This document shows positions 22,255 through 35,226 of a stretch of 64,000 nucleotides of DNA, one piece after another. The notes below the pieces were generated by a model. That model was not told the DNA's origin. It searched no databases and saw only the letters and a program-made list of their open reading frames with translations. The position numbers and the translations under genes are program-made. The stretch is from a phage. The stretch is taken from the sequence record OZ335961.1; one strand, given 5' to 3'. Each line of letters begins with the position of its first letter. The first letter of the stretch is position 1.

Positions 22255-22262
22255 TATAAATA
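22255..22262 (+). promoter_or_regulatory. T4 late promoter TATAAATA for gene 34
   Basis: Exact TATAAATA ~35 nt upstream of the gene 34 ATG. Confidence 0.6.
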
Positions 22263-25200: not shown

Positions 25201-26166
25201 AGAGTGTGGGGAAATCAATTCAGCGGTGAATCGGACACAACACGTTCTACCGTATTTGAAGTTAGTGATGAAACGTCTAGTCATTTTTATTCTCAGCGTA
25301 ATAAAGCTGGTAATATAACATTTAATATCAATGGTACAGTAACGCCGATAAATGTTAATGCTTCAGGAACATTGAATGCGAATGGCGTAGCAACATTCGG
25401 CAGTTCGGTTACTGCTAATGGCGAATTTATCAGTAAATCATCGAATGCTTTTAGAGCAATAAACGGTGATTATGGATTCTTTATTCGTAATGATGGTGCT
25501 AACACCTATTTTATGCTTACTGCATCTGGTGATCAGACCGGTGGATTTAATGGATTACGTCCTTTAACTATTAATAATGCATCTGGTCAAGTAACGATTG
25601 GTGAAAGTTTAATCATTGCCAAAGGTGCTACTATAAGTTCAGGCGGTTTAACTGTTAACTCGAGAATTCGTTCTCAGGGTACTAAAACCTCTGATTTATA
25701 TACCCGTGCGCCAACATCTGATACTGTAGGATTCTGGTCAATCGATATTAATGATTCAGCCACTTATAACCAGTTCCCGGGTTATTTTAAGATGGTTGAA
25801 AAAACTAATGAAGTGACTGGGCTTCCATACTTAGAACGTGGTGAAGAAGTTAAATCTCCTGGTACATTGACCCAGTTTGGTAACACACTTGATTCGCTTT
25901 ACCAAGATTGGATTACTTATCCAACGACTCCAGAAGCACGTACCACTCGCTGGACACGTACATGGCAGAAAACCAAAAACTCTTGGTCAAGTTTTGTTCA
26001 GGTATTTGACGGAGGTAACCCTCCTCAACCTTCAGATATAGGAGCGATCCCATCTGATAACGGAATAATAGGTAATCTTACTATTCGCGATTTCTTACGA
26101 ATTGGTAATGTTCGCATTATTCCTGACCCAGTGAATAAAACTGTTAAATTTGAGTGGATTGAATAA
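22297..26166 (+). CDS. 34: long tail fibre proximal subunit gp34
   Basis: 1289 aa, same length as T4 gp34; internal repeated modules; late promoter TATAAATA upstream. Confidence 0.95.
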   Translation: MAEIKRKFRAEDGLDAGGDKIINVALADRTVGTDGVNVDYLIQENTVQQYDPTRGYLKDFVIIYNNRFWAATDNIPKPAGSFNRIRWKALRTDAVYTTVSSGPYQLKSGEAISVDTSVGNDIEFTLPPSPLDGETVIIQDIGGKPGINQVKISSSNQSIVNFRGEQVRSVLMTHPKSQMIFIFNNRLWQMYVADYSREAAIVTPSTAYQAQSNDFIVRRFTSAAPINIKLPKFANHGDIINFVDLDKLNPLYHTIVTTYDETTSVQEVGTHSIEGRTSIDGFLMFDDNEKLWRLFDGDSKARLRIITTNSNIRPNEEVMVFGANNGTTQTIELQLPTNISVGDTVKISMNYMRKGQTVKIKAAGEDKIASSVQLLQFPKRSEYPPEAEWVTVQELVFNGETNYVPVLQLAYIEDSDGKYWVVQQNVPTVERVDSLNNSTRARLGVIALATQAQANVDLENSPQKELAITPETLANRTATETRRGIARIATTAQVNQNTTFSFADDLIITPKKLNERTATETRRGVAEIATQQETNTGTDDTTIITPKKLQARQGSETLSGIVTFVSTAGATPASSRELNGTNVYNKNTNNLVVSPKALDQYKATPTQQGAVILAVESEVIAGQSQEGWANAVVTPETLHKKTSTDGRIGLIEIATQSEVNTGTDYTRAVTPKTLNDRRATESLSGIAEIATQVEFDAGVDDTRISTPLKIKTRFDSTDRTSVVALSGLVESGTLWDHYTLNILEANETQRGTLRVATQVEAAAGTLDNVLITPKKLLGTKSTEAQEGVIKVATQVETVTGTSANTAVSPKNLKWIVQSEPTWAATTLVRGFVKTSSGSITFVGNDTVGSTQSLDLYEKNSYAVSPYELNRVLANYLPLKAKAVDSNLLDGLDSSQFIRRDIAQTVNGSLTLTQQTNLSAPLVSSSTATFGGSVSANSTLTISNTGTATRLIFEKGPQTGTNPAQTMTVRVWGNQFSGESDTTRSTVFEVSDETSSHFYSQRNKAGNITFNINGTVTPINVNASGTLNANGVATFGSSVTANGEFISKSSNAFRAINGDYGFFIRNDGANTYFMLTASGDQTGGFNGLRPLTINNASGQVTIGESLIIAKGATISSGGLTVNSRIRSQGTKTSDLYTRAPTSDTVGFWSIDINDSATYNQFPGYFKMVEKTNEVTGLPYLERGEEVKSPGTLTQFGNTLDSLYQDWITYPTTPEARTTRWTRTWQKTKNSWSSFVQVFDGGNPPQPSDIGAIPSDNGIIGNLTIRDFLRIGNVRIIPDPVNKTVKFEWIE

Positions 26167-26174
26167 GAGGTATT

Positions 26175-27290
26175 ATGGAAAAATTTATGGCAGAGTTTGG
26201 ACAAGGATATGTCCAAACGCCATTTTTATCGGAAAGTAATTCAGTAAGATACAAAATAAGTATAGCGGGTTCTTGCCCGCTTTCCACAGCAGGACCGTAT
26301 GTTAAATTTCAAGATAACCCAGTTGGAAATCAAACATTTAGTGCAGGTCTTCATTTAAGAGTTTTTGATCCTTCTACGGGAGCATTAGTTGATAGTAAGT
26401 CATATGCTTTTTCTACTTCAAATAATACTACATCAGCTGCTTTTGTTAGTTTCATGAATTCTTTGTCAAACAATAGACTTGCTGCTATATTGACTAGCGG
26501 AAAGGTTAATTTTCCTCCTGAAGTGGTATCTTGGCTAAGGAAAGCAGGAACTTCAGTTTTTCCATCAGATTCAGTATTGTCAAGATTTGACGTATCATAT
26601 GCTGCTTTTTACACTTCTTCTAAAAGAGCTATTGCATTAGAACATGTTAAACTAAGTAATAGAAAAAGCACAGATGATTATCAAACTATTTTAGATGTTG
26701 TATTTGACAGCTTAGAAGATGTTGGGGCGACAGGATTTCCTAAAAGAACATATGAAAGTGTCGAGCAATTTATGTCAGCGGTTGGTGGAACTAATAACGA
26801 AATTGCGCGATTGCCAACTTCAGCTGCTATAAGTAAACTTTCTGACTATAATTTAATTCCTGGTGATGTTCTTTATCTTAAAGCACAGTTATATGCTGAT
26901 GCTGATTTACTTGATCTTGGAACTACAAATATATCCATTCGTTTTTATGATGCATCAAATGGATATATTTCTTCGACACAGGCTGAGTTTACTGGACAAG
27001 CTGGATCTTGGGAATTAAAGGAAGATTATGTAGTTGTTCCTGAAAATGCAGTCGGATTTACGATATATGCACAGAGAACTGCTCAAGCTGGTCAAGGCGG
27101 CATGAGGAATTTAAGTTTTTCTGAAGTGTCAAGAAATGGCGGCATTTCAAAACCTGCCGAATTTGGCGTCAATGGTATTCGCGTTAATTATGTCTGTGAA
27201 TCGGCTTCACCTCCAGATATAATGGTACTTCCTACACAAGCATCGTCTAAAACTGGCAAAGTATTTGGGCAAGAATTTAGAGAAGTTTAA
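26175..27290 (+). CDS. 35: long tail fibre hinge protein gp35
   Basis: 371 aa; MEKFMAE... as recalled for T4 gp35; SD-ATG immediately after gene 34. Confidence 0.85.
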   Translation: MEKFMAEFGQGYVQTPFLSESNSVRYKISIAGSCPLSTAGPYVKFQDNPVGNQTFSAGLHLRVFDPSTGALVDSKSYAFSTSNNTTSAAFVSFMNSLSNNRLAAILTSGKVNFPPEVVSWLRKAGTSVFPSDSVLSRFDVSYAAFYTSSKRAIALEHVKLSNRKSTDDYQTILDVVFDSLEDVGATGFPKRTYESVEQFMSAVGGTNNEIARLPTSAAISKLSDYNLIPGDVLYLKAQLYADADLLDLGTTNISIRFYDASNGYISSTQAEFTGQAGSWELKEDYVVVPENAVGFTIYAQRTAQAGQGGMRNLSFSEVSRNGGISKPAEFGVNGIRVNYVCESASPPDIMVLPTQASSKTGKVFGQEFREV

Positions 27291-27321: not shown

Positions 27322-27329
27322 TATAAATA
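27322..27329 (+). promoter_or_regulatory. T4 late promoter TATAAATA for gene 36
   Basis: Exact TATAAATA ~25 nt upstream of the gene 36 ATG, just after the gene 35 terminator. Confidence 0.6.
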
Positions 27330-28011: not shown

Positions 28012-30978
28012 ATGGCTACTTTAAAACAAATACAATTTAAAAGAAGCAAAACTGCAGGTCAACTTCCTGCTGCTTCAGTATTAGCCGAAGGTGAATTGGC
28101 TATTAATTTAAAAGATAAAACAATTTTCACAAAAGATGACTCAGGCAATGTTATAGAATTAGGTTTAAAATATGGAGGAACAATTGATGGTTCTTTAACT
28201 GTTAATGGAAATATAATTGGAAATTTAACAGGTAACGCTGCAACTGCAACGAAATTAAAAACAGCACGAAAAATTAATGGTATATCCTTTGATGGGTCAA
28301 AAGATATCACGCTAACTCCATCTGACATAAATGTCAATAGCACAACGTTTATAAAAAATAACGGCGAATTACCGGTTGATGCTAATTTAGATACGTATGG
28401 GCCTGTTGAAGAATATCTTGGAGTTTGGTCGAAAGCAACTTCAACCAACGCTCAACCAGCAAATAAATTTCCAGAAGAAAATGCTGTAGGTGTGCTAGAA
28501 GTATTTGTGGCCGGTCAATTTGCTGGTACTCAGCGTTATACAACTAGATACGGAAATGTTTATATTCGTTCCTTGACTGCTACATGGAACGGAGTAAACG
28601 GTCCGTGGAGTGTGTGGCGAAATATTCAATCCGGTACTCGTCCACTGTCAACAACAATTGATCTTAATGATTTAGGAGGAGCTGAACACCTTGGTTTGTG
28701 GCGAAATAGTTCAAATTCCATTGCTACATTTGACAGAAATTTCCCAGAAGAGGGGTCGTCAGCTCAAGGTCTTTTGGAAGTATATGAAGGTGGAAACTAT
28801 TCTCGTACACAAAGATATACAACCAGATTTGGTGTTGTTTATACTCGTTGTCTTGCTGCCGCGTGGGATTCTACTGCGCCTAAATGGGGACCGTGGCAAC
28901 AAGTCGGTAATGTCACACCAGCGACTTTTTATGATGGAGATCTGAATGATTTTAAAACTCCTGGGTTATATAATATTTTAGGCACTGATGCCGTTATTAA
29001 TTGTCCTACAGGCGAAGGTTTACCAGCCGTTATTGTTGGTTTGCTGGAAGTTAAACAGCGTGCTTCTGGTGGTGCTATTTTCCAAAAATTTACTACTGCC
29101 GGAACAGGTGCAACTACCCGCGATCGTATTTTTGAGCGCGCATATACCGGCGGTGTGTGGGGTGAATGGAACGAAGTATACACATCTTATTCTCTACCAA
29201 TTACTTTGGGTATGGGCGGTATTAAATCTAACTTAGCAGAGTTAGACTGGCAAGCATTTGATTTTGTTCCTGGTAGTATGTTTAGCGTTCCTTTGAACAA
29301 AATAAAGAACATGCCAGCTAATATGGATTGGGGTACGATTAACGGAAACTTAATTATGTTTTCTGTTGGTCCTAGCGAGCACACCAGCACAGGACGTACT
29401 GTTCAAGTTTGGCGTGGAACTGTATCCCAGACAAACTATCGTTATTTTGTCGTTCGTGTATTCGGTAATCCAGGGAGTAGAACATGTACAGTTCGACGCG
29501 TTGTTCTTGAAGACGGATCACATACTTGGACTGCTAAACAAGATTTTAATGGCGCAGTTAACTTTAACTCTACTGTTAACCTTAATAACACTACCACATT
29601 TAAAACAGAAGTTAAATTCCGCTCGTTGAATGCATTCCGTATGTATGGCGGAAAATTTGGTACATTTTTACGTAATGATGGAGAGAGTCTTTATATTCTT
29701 TCCACCGACGAAGATGATCAAGATGGAAACTTTAATACAAATAGACCTTTCCGTTATGAATTAAGAACTGGTGATGTTACTTTAGGTGGTACTAGTGGTG
29801 CTAACGTTTTAAAATTAAAACGTGATTCTCTCACCGCATTTTTTGGTGGTGATATTAACATGAAAGGCTTGCTGACTTTTGACGCCGGACGTTTAGGATC
29901 ACGAGATTATTTTAAATTTAACCATTGGGGTGATAGTAATAATGCGCGTGATAACATTATTCAGTTAGAAGACAGCAAAGGCGCTCATTTTTCCACTGAA
30001 CGTACTTTAGCGACTGGTGCAATTAAGACTAAATTTTTTGGTGAAATTGAATCCGATGGTAAATTGGTTATTAAACGTCCGGGTGATTCTATTGTATTAT
30101 CAACAACTGCTAGTAATTCTTTGCATATTCGTGGTGACATAGACGGGACTGGTAACTGGTATATTGGTAAGGGTGGTGCTGATAATGGATTAGCGTTATA
30201 TAGTTATGCTACTAATGCTGGTGTATACATTACAAACGCAGGAGATATCACGCTAAGTCCAAAAGGCGTCGAAATGGCCCATGTCAATAACGTTCGATTA
30301 TATGTTCACGGTGAACGTTGGACTGCTAGTCAACCAGGTGATTGGGGTAGTCAGTGGCAAGTGGAAGCGCCAATATTCGTCGATCATGGTTATGTTTCAC
30401 AGGATTGTTATTATCCAATTATTAAAGGAAGAAGTGTAATCACCAATCAAGGGTTTGTAACTGCCGTCGATCTTGGTATTCGTCGTGTCAATAACAATTG
30501 GGGACAAGCAATTATTCGTGTTGGATCTGCGGAGGCATCGCCAGCGGCTGGACACCCTAACGCGGTATTTGAATTTCATTACGACGGTACTTTCTATTCT
30601 CCTGGTAATGGTAACTTTAACGATGTGTATATTCGTTCCGATGGTCGTCTTAAGATTAATAAAAAAGAGCTAGAAAACGGAGCACTTGAAAAAGTATGCC
30701 GACTGAAAGTTTATACATACGATAAGGTTAAGTCTATTAAAGATCGTAGTGTTATTAAACGTGAAGTTGGTATTATTGCTCAGGATCTTGAAAAAGAATT
30801 ACCAGAAGCTGTGTCTAAAGTTGAAGTTGATGGATCTGATGTTCTGACAATTTCTAACTCCGCTGTGAATGCTCTTTTAATTAAGGCTATCCAAGAAATG
30901 AGCGAAGAAATTAAAGAATTAAAAACGCCTTTCTTCACTAAAATTGCTCGCAAAATTAGTAATTATTTTAAATTCTAA
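28012..30978 (+). CDS. 37: long tail fibre distal subunit gp37 with C-terminal intramolecular chaperone-like domain
   Basis: 988 aa; N-terminus similar to gp36/gp34 junction motifs; C-terminal ~113 aa starts at an SDGRLK-type motif. Confidence 0.9.
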
Positions 30979-31010
30979 CAACAAGGGGCTTTGCCCCTTT
31001 GGAGAAAATT

Positions 31011-31811
31011 ATGGCAGTAGTTGGTGTTCCCGGTTGGATTGGAAGTTCATCTGTAAATGAAACAGGACAACGATGGATGAGTCAAGCGGCTGGTCAATTA
31101 AGATTGGGTGTTCCTTGCTGGATGAGCCAATTCGCCGGACGCTCAAGAGAGATTATTCATACCGTAACAGCAAACCATAACTTTAATGGTCAATGGTTCC
31201 GCGACCGTTGCTTTGAAGCTGGCGGTGCACCCATTGTATTCAATATTGTTGGTGATATCGTTTCTTATTCTAAAGATGTGCCACTTTTCTTTATGTATGG
31301 GGATACGCCTAATGAATATGTTGTTCTTAATATTCATGGTGGTGTTCATATGTGGGGTCGTGGTGGTAATGGTGGATACACTCACTCAGGAGGCGACGGT
31401 AACGGTACACAAGGCGGTCATGTTATTCAAAATGATATCGGTGGACGGCTTCGTATTTGGAACTACGGTGTTATAGCTGCTGGGGGTGGCGGCGGTGGTG
31501 GTATTGCATATCGTCCACACTCAGGGGCAAACTGGCAAGATATCGGCGGTGGTGGTGGTCGACCTTTCGGTGGCGCTGGCGGCGGCGGTTATTCCGGTGG
31601 TGCTGCTTCGTATGAAGGTCCGGGTGGTGGTTATGACTATGGTAACGCACACTCCGGCGCAGGCGGTAATGCTGGTGCTGCTGGTCAGAATGCATGGTAT
31701 GACGGCGGTAAAGTTCTTAAAGTTGGTGTTGGTGGTGCGTCTGGTCATGCAGTGTTTGGGTCTTCTCCAACTTGGGGTGCTGTTGGAACAATTTACGGAC
31801 CAAGAGTATAA
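31011..31811 (+). CDS. 38: gp38 tail-fibre adhesin (T2-type, glycine-rich motifs)
   Basis: ~266 aa from ATG with GGAG SD; multiple poly-Gly tracts (GGGGGGG, GGGGG) separating short variable segments. Confidence 0.8.
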
Positions 31812-31841
31812 TTTGAATAAATATCTTTAAAAGGAGGGTCT

Positions 31842-32498
31842 ATGGCAGCACCTAGAATATCATTTTCGCCCTCTGGTATTCTGTTTGGTGTTCTGGATCG
31901 CTTGTTCAAAGATAACGCTACCGGGAAGGTTCTTGCTTCCCGAGTAGCTGTCGTAATTCTTTTATTTATGATGGCGATTGTTTGGTATAGGGGAGATAGT
32001 TTCTTTGAGTACTATAAGCAATCAAAGTATGAAACATACAGTGAAATTATTGAAAAGGAAAGAAACGCACGCTTTGAATCTGTCGCCCTGGAACAACTCC
32101 AGATAGTTCATATATCATCTGAGGCAGACTTTAGTGTGGTGTATTCTTTCCGCCCTAAAAACTTAAACTATTTTGTTGATATTATAGCATACGAAGGAAA
32201 ACTACCTTCAACAATAAGTGAAAAATCACTTGGAGGATATCCTGTTGATAAAACTATGGATGAATATGCAGTTCATTTAAATGGACGTCATTATTATTCC
32301 AACTCAAAATTTGCTTTTTTACCAACCAAAAAGCCTACTCCCGAAATAAATTACATGTACAGTTGTCCATATTTTAATTTGGATAACATCTATGCTGGAA
32401 CAATAACCATGTACTGGTATAGAAATGATCATATAAGTAATGACCGCCTTGAATCAATATGTGCTCAGGCGGCCAGAATATTAGGAAGGGCTAAATAA
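31842..32498 (+). CDS. t: holin t
   Basis: 218 aa, same length as T4 holin T; single N-proximal TM segment with large C-terminal domain; follows gene 38. Confidence 0.8.
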   Translation: MAAPRISFSPSGILFGVLDRLFKDNATGKVLASRVAVVILLFMMAIVWYRGDSFFEYYKQSKYETYSEIIEKERNARFESVALEQLQIVHISSEADFSVVYSFRPKNLNYFVDIIAYEGKLPSTISEKSLGGYPVDKTMDEYAVHLNGRHYYSNSKFAFLPTKKPTPEINYMYSCPYFNLDNIYAGTITMYWYRNDHISNDRLESICAQAARILGRAK

Positions 32499-33793: not shown

Positions 33794-34254
33794 TAGTAAA
33801 GGTCCTCAGAGTAAAGTTCTTTTTCACTACCACCGCGTTCAATACGTACTTGTCCAGCATAAGTTGCAATAATCATTGCTTCTTCACGTGTCCAATAATT
33901 ACTATACTGATCAATAAACCCTTGGTCATCATCACAAACTTGCTGAGTAACTAATTGAGGTTTAACTACATCTAAAACTTCTGCCATATCTTTAGAATAA
34001 TGACGAGCACCTGGAATAACAAGAGTTCGTCCATCTTTTAATTTAAAACGGTTGGCTGCGCAAACAATTCGTCGTTGATACTTTTGGTTTTTATCCCAGT
34101 ATGCGGTCTGCCAACAGATTTCAGGAACTTCATCTAAAACATTTTGTTCTGTGTATTCACCACTGTAAGAAGCTAATTTAGCAGCCAAACTTTCTGGGGT
34201 CTCACGTGACAAAGCTTTATCTAACAGAGCTAAACGTTCTTTAAAAGTTTTCAT
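33793..34254 (-). CDS. hypothetical protein (153 aa)
   Basis: ORF track. Confidence 0.5.
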
Positions 34255-34580
34255 TTAAACCATCCTTTAATACGCTGCCACAAAGTTTTCTGTTGAGCTT
34301 TGTTAACACCAATTGATCGAATAACTGGTTGAGATTCCTGGAATTCTTTATAATCAGCAAGGTAAATTTCGTAAGCTGCATCCGTAAATGAACTTATCGC
34401 CGCCATAAAATTATTGCGAATACCTACTGGAGCATCTTTACTTTCACGAATAATCATGTATTTACCAGTCTTAATCTTTACAATACTTCCAAGATAAGCT
34501 CCATGGTACCAGATGTCCCACCCCTCTTGAGTGGGTTCTGCACAACGACGAAGTTCATTAACAATTTCTAACTTGTTCAT
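34251..34580 (-). CDS. hypothetical protein (109 aa)
   Basis: ORF track. Confidence 0.45.
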
Positions 34581-34590
34581 TATTTATTCC

Positions 34591-35226
34591 TCACAGTTCA
34601 GATGCTACGGTGATTACTGCTTCAATGTTTTCTGCCGAGCGTTTAATGTCAAGATACACATTACCGTTTTTAGCGATTTTACATGACATTCCAATATCAG
34701 TAAATTTCTGAATATGATGTTCCATCATTTTGTATCCAAAAATTCGCATATTTCCGTTGTTGTTAATTTCAAAATTGCGAATTCCGTGAGTGCGTTTTTC
34801 TAAAATAGCAAGATAGTTACTACGGTAAGTTTCAACTTTTTTAAGAACAAATCCATTTTCATCTAAAAGTTTTAACATGAGGTCTTTATCTTCTTCCATA
34901 TCGGAAGTAATCTCACGAGCTTTACGAGTTGCTCGTTTTTTCAGTAGTTCAGGAGCATTTTCCTGCGCGTATAAAGTTGCTGCATTTGAAATAATATCCT
35001 GAGCTTCACCTGTAATGATTAATCCATCACCAGATTTCTCCACCAGGCCTTTTTTAATCAATACCCCAATATTACTATTAACTACTGCGTTACCTAAATC
35101 TGGATGCACCTCACGAACTTCTGCAGCTGTAATGAAATCTTTCTTAGCAATGGTAATTAAAATCGCAGCAGTTTTTTCATTCAGAACATCGTTAGAAGCT
35201 TTGATGATGTAAGTTACTTTAGACAT
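34591..35226 (-). CDS. motA: middle-transcription activator MotA
   Basis: 211 aa as T4 MotA; consensus early promoter upstream at ~35268-35297. Confidence 0.8.
   Translation of the reverse strand: MSKVTYIIKASNDVLNEKTAAILITIAKKDFITAAEVREVHPDLGNAVVNSNIGVLIKKGLVEKSGDGLIITGEAQDIISNAATLYAQENAPELLKKRATRKAREITSDMEEDKDLMLKLLDENGFVLKKVETYRSNYLAILEKRTHGIRNFEINNNGNMRIFGYKMMEHHIQKFTDIGMSCKIAKNGNVYLDIKRSAENIEAVITVASEL

Follow-up and report, generated by a model that had tools for sequence, protein, structure and literature searches.

A T2-class gp38 adhesin gene of mosaic T6/Ox2 ancestry in a Tequatrovirus genome

[quoted passage not shown] We place the probability of this reading, including the mode of action proposed below, at about 93%. 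The gene is an ordinary full member of a well-described family and in that sense already known. Judged from its sequence, its subtype is a combination of an N-terminal half resembling T6 and a specificity domain resembling Ox2. Coordinates of the features are collected in Table 1.

The reading frame of gene 38 is intact, running from the ATG at 31011 to the TAA at 31809–31811 over 266 codons. A TTG at 30999 was rejected as an alternative start: it is an option of the mechanical list of open reading frames, and the annotated homologues, all 266 aa long, use the ATG. Glycine accounts for 69 of the 266 residues (26%), its share being 12% in residues 1–115 versus 36% in residues 116–266, and the longest runs lie at residues 158–164 (7), 179–183 (5) and 190–193 (4). 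GGT supplies 44 of the 69 Gly codons.

Table 1. Features of the gene 38 region, in window coordinates
Feature	Position	Strand	Basis or remark
T4-type late promoter consensus TATAAATA, 5′ of gene 36	27322–27329	+	exact match; position
Gene 36, small distal tail-fibre subunit, 216 aa	27353–28003	+	Pfam Phage_T4_gp36; synteny with annotated relatives
Gene 37, large distal tail-fibre subunit, 988 aa, T2-type	28012–30978	+	Gp34_trimer, Peptidase_S74
Stretch following Ox2: g37 3′ part	30279–30861		99 consecutive informative sites
Predicted self-cleaved gp37 C-terminal piece, residues 876–988, 113 aa	30637–30975	+	VYIRS/DGRLK; start of S74 match
Stretch following T6: g37 end, spacer, g38 codons 1–96	30963–31298		42 informative sites
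Intergenic hairpin AAGGGGC-TTT-GCCCCTT, g37–g38 spacer (~32–33 nt)	30983–30999	+	sequence
GGAG ribosome-binding site, gene 38	31001–31004	+	read from sequence; 6 nt 5′ of ATG
Gene 38, receptor-recognising tail-fibre tip adhesin, 266 aa + stop	31011–31811	+	families, solved homologues, fold
N-terminal attachment domain, codons 1–46	31011–31148	+	Gp38_N, residues 1–42; W9, W22, W37
Beta-helix domain, first part, codons 47–114	31149–31352	+	model strands with pLDDT >90; 9v85/6f45 matches
Crossover interval, T6-like 5′ / Ox2-like 3′	31299–31372	+	conserved block ending in first Gly motif WGRGGNG
Specificity domain, codons 115–250	31353–31760	+	entropy, invariant Gly columns, S16/PP01 alignment, non-alpha/non-beta model
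Stretch following Ox2: g38 codons 121–263	31373–31799		about 190 informative sites
Antisense ORF, 74 aa, composition artefact	31471–31695	-	23% His, 19% Arg; no PHROG match
Seven-codon GGN run, residues 158–164	31482–31502	+	synonymous-change hotspot; 8 haplotypes in 12 sequences
Antisense ORF, 75 aa, composition artefact	31521–31748	-	28% Thr; no PHROG match
Codon 230 (Tyr), last hypervariable segment	31698–31700	+	polymorphic Y/S/H in near-identical relatives
Conserved C-terminal strands closing the beta-helix, codons 251–266	31761–31808	+	conservation, model
Gene t, holin, directly 3′ of gene 38	31842–32498	+	Phage_holin_T, 7.4e-116
Conserved Gly motif, residues 115–121			entropy 0.42 bit
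Hypervariable segment, residues 122–134			entropy 1.69 bit
Conserved Gly motif, residues 158–164			entropy 0.30 bit
Hypervariable segment, residues 165–178			entropy 2.49 bit
Conserved Gly motif, residues 179–187			entropy 0.12 bit
Hypervariable segment, residues 188–199			entropy 1.54 bit
Hypervariable segment, residues 208–216			entropy 2.06 bit
Conserved Gly motif, residues 217–225			entropy 1.01 bit
Hypervariable segment, residues 226–240			entropy 2.15 bit
Conserved Gly motif, residues 241–250			entropy 0.82 bit

The assignment to the T2 class is carried by family profiles matched over their full length and above curated cut-offs. Pfam GP38 (PF05268) aligns residues 47–266 with the complete profile (1–218 of 218; 223.7 bits against a cut-off of 25, 3.2e-66), Gp38_N (PF21721) takes residues 1–42 (70.2 bits, cut-off 25, 1.4e-19), and phrog_2056, labelled 'tail fiber protein; host specificity', spans the entire protein (residues 1–266 on profile positions 1–267 of 267, 9e-108); NCBIfam holds no model for either the adhesin-type or the T4-type gp38. 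Moreover, gene 38 directly follows a gene 37 that encodes a Peptidase_S74 domain with the conserved VYIRS/DGRLK motif.

The name gp38 is shared with a T4 protein (NP_049864) whose gene occupies the same place between g37 and t, and a loose 'assembly catalyst' label adheres to homologues in some database records, both of which would suit a T4-type chaperone that assists gp37 folding and is absent from the virion. The T4 protein, however, is unrelated in sequence: BLASTP of the window's gp38 against it detects no similarity (E=9.3), it has 183 aa as against 266 here, and its PHROG, phrog_105 ('tail fiber assembly'), does not match the window's gp38, the two PHROGs being separate and without cross-hits. 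Nor is the T4 protein a virion component, and T4 gp37 lacks the self-cleaving chaperone domain that the window's gp37 carries. The chaperone identity is thereby refuted at the sequence level, and we consider it extremely improbable. Equally improbable is a real overlapping gene among the alternative-frame ORFs within gene 38, which comprise the two antisense ORFs of Table 1, rich in His/Arg and in Thr, and a Val/Leu-rich one at 31486–31830. These ORFs do extend over 74–114 codons, and relatives also have long antisense stretches without stops in gene 38, but the longest of those stretches shift in frame and length among divergent relatives, the Gly-rich sense frame contains few triplets whose reverse complements are stop codons, and the composition of the ORFs is that expected from GGT/GGC repeats read in other frames. 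The two antisense ORFs match no phage protein family in PHROG, nor do any of the alternative-frame ORFs, and those rich in His and Thr are composition artefacts, since GGT repeats read on the opposite strand yield ACC (Thr) and CAC (His) codons.

Returning to the T2-class adhesin, an AlphaFold2 model built on 55 homologues reached a mean pLDDT of 85.6 and a pTM of 0.76, only the first 17 residues scoring below 50; the Gly-rich region is modelled confidently, without helix and with almost no strand assigned. Foldseek against the PDB returned the receptor-binding domain of PP01 gp38 (9v85; PMC12892980), with E 3e-25, TM 0.86 on the target and 58% identity for chain C and with E 8e-24 for chain A, as well as the gp38 of S16 (6f45_D; E 2.4e-20, TM 0.73–0.78, 42% identity), and besides these three chains nothing better than E=2.5. 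The same two proteins are found by sequence (3.9e-61 for PP01 9v85 and 3.2e-43 for S16 6f45_D). In S16, a single copy of gp38 caps the gp37 trimer, docked via three conserved Trp residues, and its hypervariable loops stick out from a polyglycine-II sandwich that the Gly motifs build in three layers (PMC6851490). The window's gp38 has the three-part fold of attachment domain, beta-helix and polyglycine-II sandwich with loops in common with both structures (Foldseek probability 1.00), the beta-helix and the sandwich being predicted from the model; S16 and PP01 gp38, however, bind OmpC, and their hypervariable loops are unlike those of the window's gp38 in sequence and length.

The three Trp residues of the attachment domain all align with those of S16 and are well conserved among 119 homologues (113 of 119 each for W9 and W22, 102 of 119 for W37). 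In the alignment of these homologues, from which column entropies were computed per segment, conserved Gly motifs alternate with hypervariable segments (0.12–1.01 versus 1.54–2.49 bit), which is the T2-class arrangement in which five glycine-rich motifs are interspersed with four hypervariable segments (Trojet 2011, PMC3157838). By alignment, PP01 receptor loops A to E are the approximate counterparts of the variable segments. The sequence-only reading had proposed a T2-type adhesin of about 266 aa, rather than the ~183-aa chaperone, with several poly-glycine tracts in GGT-rich DNA that separate short variable segments and generate spurious His- and Thr-rich ORFs, and the codon counts, profiles, fold and entropies bear this description out. 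The alignment to gp38 adhesins that it had suggested as a check places the protein in the Ox2/T6/T2/PP01/S16 family, and best homology to the T4 chaperone, the outcome it had named as speaking against itself, did not occur. Its label 'T2-type' is right for the class but not for the subtype, T2's own gp38 being just 36–63% identical per domain.

The partner of gp38 fits the same class. Residues 876–934 of gp37 carry the Pfam domain Peptidase_S74 ('chaperone of endosialidase'), which T4 gp37 does not have, and there is similarity to the gp37 chain of S16 (6f45) over residues 869–973 (E=1.7e-4). The VYIRS/DGRLK motif lies at residues 872–881 and is conserved in the gp37 of Ox2, T6, T2 and PP01; by analogy with these relatives, cleavage at Ser876 would release the C-terminal 113 residues, which agrees with the proteolytic processing of T2 gp37 cited in PMC3157838 (Drexler 1986). 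Because gp37 has its own C-terminal chaperone domain, unlike T4 gp37, the whole locus, beyond gene 38, belongs to the T2 class. Along the body of g37, identity to vB_VIPECOOM01 is 72–94% between 28200 and 29600, with no alignment in the 29600–30000 bins, and identity to EcNP1 between 28200 and 30000 is mostly 96–100%, with 90% at 29400–29599. Since gp38 is essentially identical in these two phages while the g37 shaft differs, shaft and tip have separate histories.

The closest relative by gp38 is Escherichia phage vB_VIPECOOM01 (OQ721909, WFG77870.1), whose protein is 100% identical (266 of 266 aa) and whose locus order is the same, although its g37 shaft is of different ancestry; in all, 11 phage records carry a gp38 at least 99% identical. 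Near-identical genes also occur in Yersinia phage PYps5T, isolated on Yersinia pseudotuberculosis (96.6% nt), and in Pseudomonas phage PsgM02F (OR584013), recorded on Pseudomonas coronafaciens (93.3% nt; 97% aa), a host label that seems doubtful for an OmpA-type coliphage adhesin. Among characterised phages, Ox2 (X05675) is nearest, with 256 of 266 residues identical (96%) and a gp37 C-terminal part that is 98–100% nt-identical to the window. The differences in gp38 (window first) are V52L, T53G, N55D, G72S, V80T, I83L, N174K, G193R, Y230S and A257V.

Identities in the Gly-rich half were taken from MAFFT alignments, as tblastn with low-complexity masking breaks off at about residue 150. Over residues 116–250, the specificity domain shares 98% identity with its counterpart in Ox2, the classic OmpA-dependent phage (PMC6499177, PMC12032242), and 82–86% with those of FL08, AV119 and KIT03, FL08 and AV119, which depend on OmpA experimentally, lying at 82–83%. 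The values fall to 48% for M1 (OmpA), 45% for T6 (Tsx), 44% for PP01 (OmpC), 43% for FL18 (OmpA, narrow-host-range type 2) and 42% for T2 (FadL/OmpF). The FL08/AV119 contact residues R165 and H167–A170 are kept as R168 and H170–A173, whereas V166 and D217 are not, being replaced by Pro169 and Asn220. The receptor is therefore probably E. coli OmpA, on the strength of the 98% identity to Ox2, and a receptor different from that of T6 is expected, given that its specificity domain is just 45% identical.

A literature search on phages with an identical gp38 found no receptor determination, and an adhesin that uses a receptor other than OmpA, or OmpA plus another (an outer-membrane protein, LPS or Yersinia surface proteins), deserves consideration. 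N174, G193 and Y230, at which Ox2 has K, R and S, align with PP01 receptor loops B, C and E and so sit in predicted receptor loops, and a few substitutions in the hypervariable segments can alter specificity (Trojet 2011, PMC3157838); for Ox2 gp38 itself, single substitutions that change or extend receptor use are cited in PMC12892980 and PMC12032242 (Drexler 1989, 1991). According to Trojet 2011 (PMC3157838), Ox2 also requires more than one receptor for full infectivity. Residue 230 is the sole specificity-domain position at which the window and most of its nearest relatives differ, in a domain that is otherwise almost fixed: the window has Tyr, as do VIPECOOM01 and PYps5T, the latter being the Yersinia isolate; Ser is found in Ox2, EcNP1, ESh29, MLP2, G29, ZCEC14, DalCa, ph0021 and one IMG/VR contig, and His in another IMG/VR contig. 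Against these points stand the near-identity of the specificity domain to that of Ox2, the mostly E. coli hosts recorded for phages with an identical or near-identical gp38, and the tolerance of PP01 to most substitutions at its own loop-E Tyr. We therefore regard a different or additional receptor as unlikely, albeit less so than the alternatives to the adhesin identity itself, and retain OmpA as the probable one.

The mosaic ancestry of gene 38 emerges from the sites that differ between T6 (AF052605) and Ox2, scored by which of the two the window follows. The 3′ part of g37 follows Ox2, the adjoining stretch into g38 codon 96 follows T6, with a small mixed patch at about 31170–31208, and every informative run from codon 121 onwards follows Ox2 again, in line with the Ox2-type subtype of the specificity domain. 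The first 355 nt of g38 are 96.6% identical to T6 versus 88.2% to Ox2; at the protein level, residues 1–115 are 99–100% identical to the Tsx-specific gp38 of T6. The crossover interval within g38 fits the model of recombination between conserved motifs that is cited by Trojet 2011 (PMC3157838) from Tetart 1998. The upstream interval, 30862–30962, falls within conserved sequence at the g37 3′ end, outside any Gly tract. Cassette exchange is also seen elsewhere, in PM105, whose flanks are 96–99% identical and whose g38 3′ half is 70–74% identical, and in VIPECOOM01, which combines an identical gp38 with a divergent g37 shaft.

The Gly codons themselves are unusually variable. Three poly-Gly codon runs of at least four Gly (31482–31502, 31545–31559 and 31578–31589; 16 codons) were compared with the other four-fold degenerate sites. 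Relative to VIPECOOM01 g38 (98.6% nt identity), all 11 nucleotide differences are synonymous third positions of Gly codons, and 8 of the 11 fall within the 16 Gly-run codons (hypergeometric p=2.4e-7). Codons 121–266 contain 20 variable four-fold sites among 11 Ox2-type sequences, and 11 of these sites lie in Gly-run codons (p=3.5e-6); with 12 sequences, the corresponding count is 13 of 35 (p=5.9e-5). The sample is small (11–12 sequences; an IMG/VR scan gave 10 loci, 2 of them close), and the counts are of variable sites, not of independent events. The excess of synonymous polymorphism is about 6-fold among near-identical relatives, the changes being among GGT, GGC and GGG. While the seven-codon run shows 8 haplotypes, every other 21-nt window shows 1–4, and PYps5T has one extra Gly codon in this run. 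Because third positions only are affected, the changes reflect genuine polymorphism that selection has filtered, and not noise from sequencing.

Candidate mechanisms for this hotspot are slippage, short-patch conversion and relaxed constraint. That the GGN runs are real mutational or short-patch recombination hotspots, and that Tyr230 may modulate host range among phages of the OmpA-binding subtype, is a tentative proposal, to which we give somewhat less than even odds. The view of the sequence-only reading that the GGT repeats are recombination-prone thus holds in part: the first Gly motif marks the end of the crossover interval within g38, and the runs show synonymous hotspots and one codon indel, but the upstream crossover at the g37 3′ end involves no Gly tract.

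The surroundings of gene 38 are those of a T4-like genome, the nearest record over 24 kb being Escherichia phage EcNP1 (97.0% identity). The local order is g35 (26175–27290), g36, g37, g38 and the holin gene t, followed by asiA on the opposite strand. In gp35, residues 58–125 give a marginal match to Pfam ILEI, interleukin-like EMT inducer (29.6 bits, cut-off 27), possibly reflecting a shared small beta-rich domain. Against ph0021, PM105 and VIPECOOM01, which are otherwise 94–98% identical to the window, identity dips to only 78–88% at 25400–25600 (gene 34) and 34000–34600, marking small mosaic patches. The TATAAATA match 5′ of gene 36 is the likely promoter of a g36–g37–g38 late transcript, an assignment made from its position and from knowledge of T4 late promoters, as such matches are no more numerous in the window than expected by chance. 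A second exact copy lies at 22255–22262 on the + strand, 5′ of gene 34, whose start in a relative is equivalent to about 22297, and there is none 5′ of gene 38 or t. A sigma-70 promoter scan gave fewer matches than shuffled sequences, as expected for late genes, and no Rfam family or tRNA was detected anywhere in the window. The stem of the g37–g38 hairpin is kept in Ox2 and ph0021, where the loop differs (AAC); its stability does not differ significantly from that of shuffled sequence (z=-1.1), and a terminator scan did not call it.

Together with what has been established for characterised relatives, these observations suggest how the adhesin may work. Gp38 would be made late in infection alongside gp36 and gp37, and folding of the gp37 trimer would be assisted by the chaperone domain at its own C-terminus, which would then be released by self-cleavage at Ser876. 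One gp38 would use its three-helix domain at the N-terminus, with W9, W22 and W37, to dock on the exposed tip of gp37, a single-copy tip location and a receptor-binding role that we infer from the structural and functional work on S16 and PP01. The Gly-rich motifs would pack as a rigid polyglycine-II sandwich, and the protruding hypervariable loops would bind an outer-membrane protein at its extracellular loops; the most likely receptor is E. coli OmpA, given the Ox2-like specificity domain.

The gp38 described here adds nothing new as a protein, its product being identical to a deposited one of the oldest-studied subtype, and both the mosaic and the hotspot in Gly codons illustrate published ideas rather than new biology. 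The value of the case is modest and lies in a clean example of a T6/Ox2 mosaic and in codon hypervariability of Gly tracts among natural isolates. If the tentative view of the GGN runs is true, such hotspots would let co-infecting close relatives reshuffle or resize single receptor loops. In most T-even phages gp38 is the main host-range determinant, and its subtype predicts the receptor, here probably OmpA; such predictions aid the choice and engineering of phages for therapy or detection.
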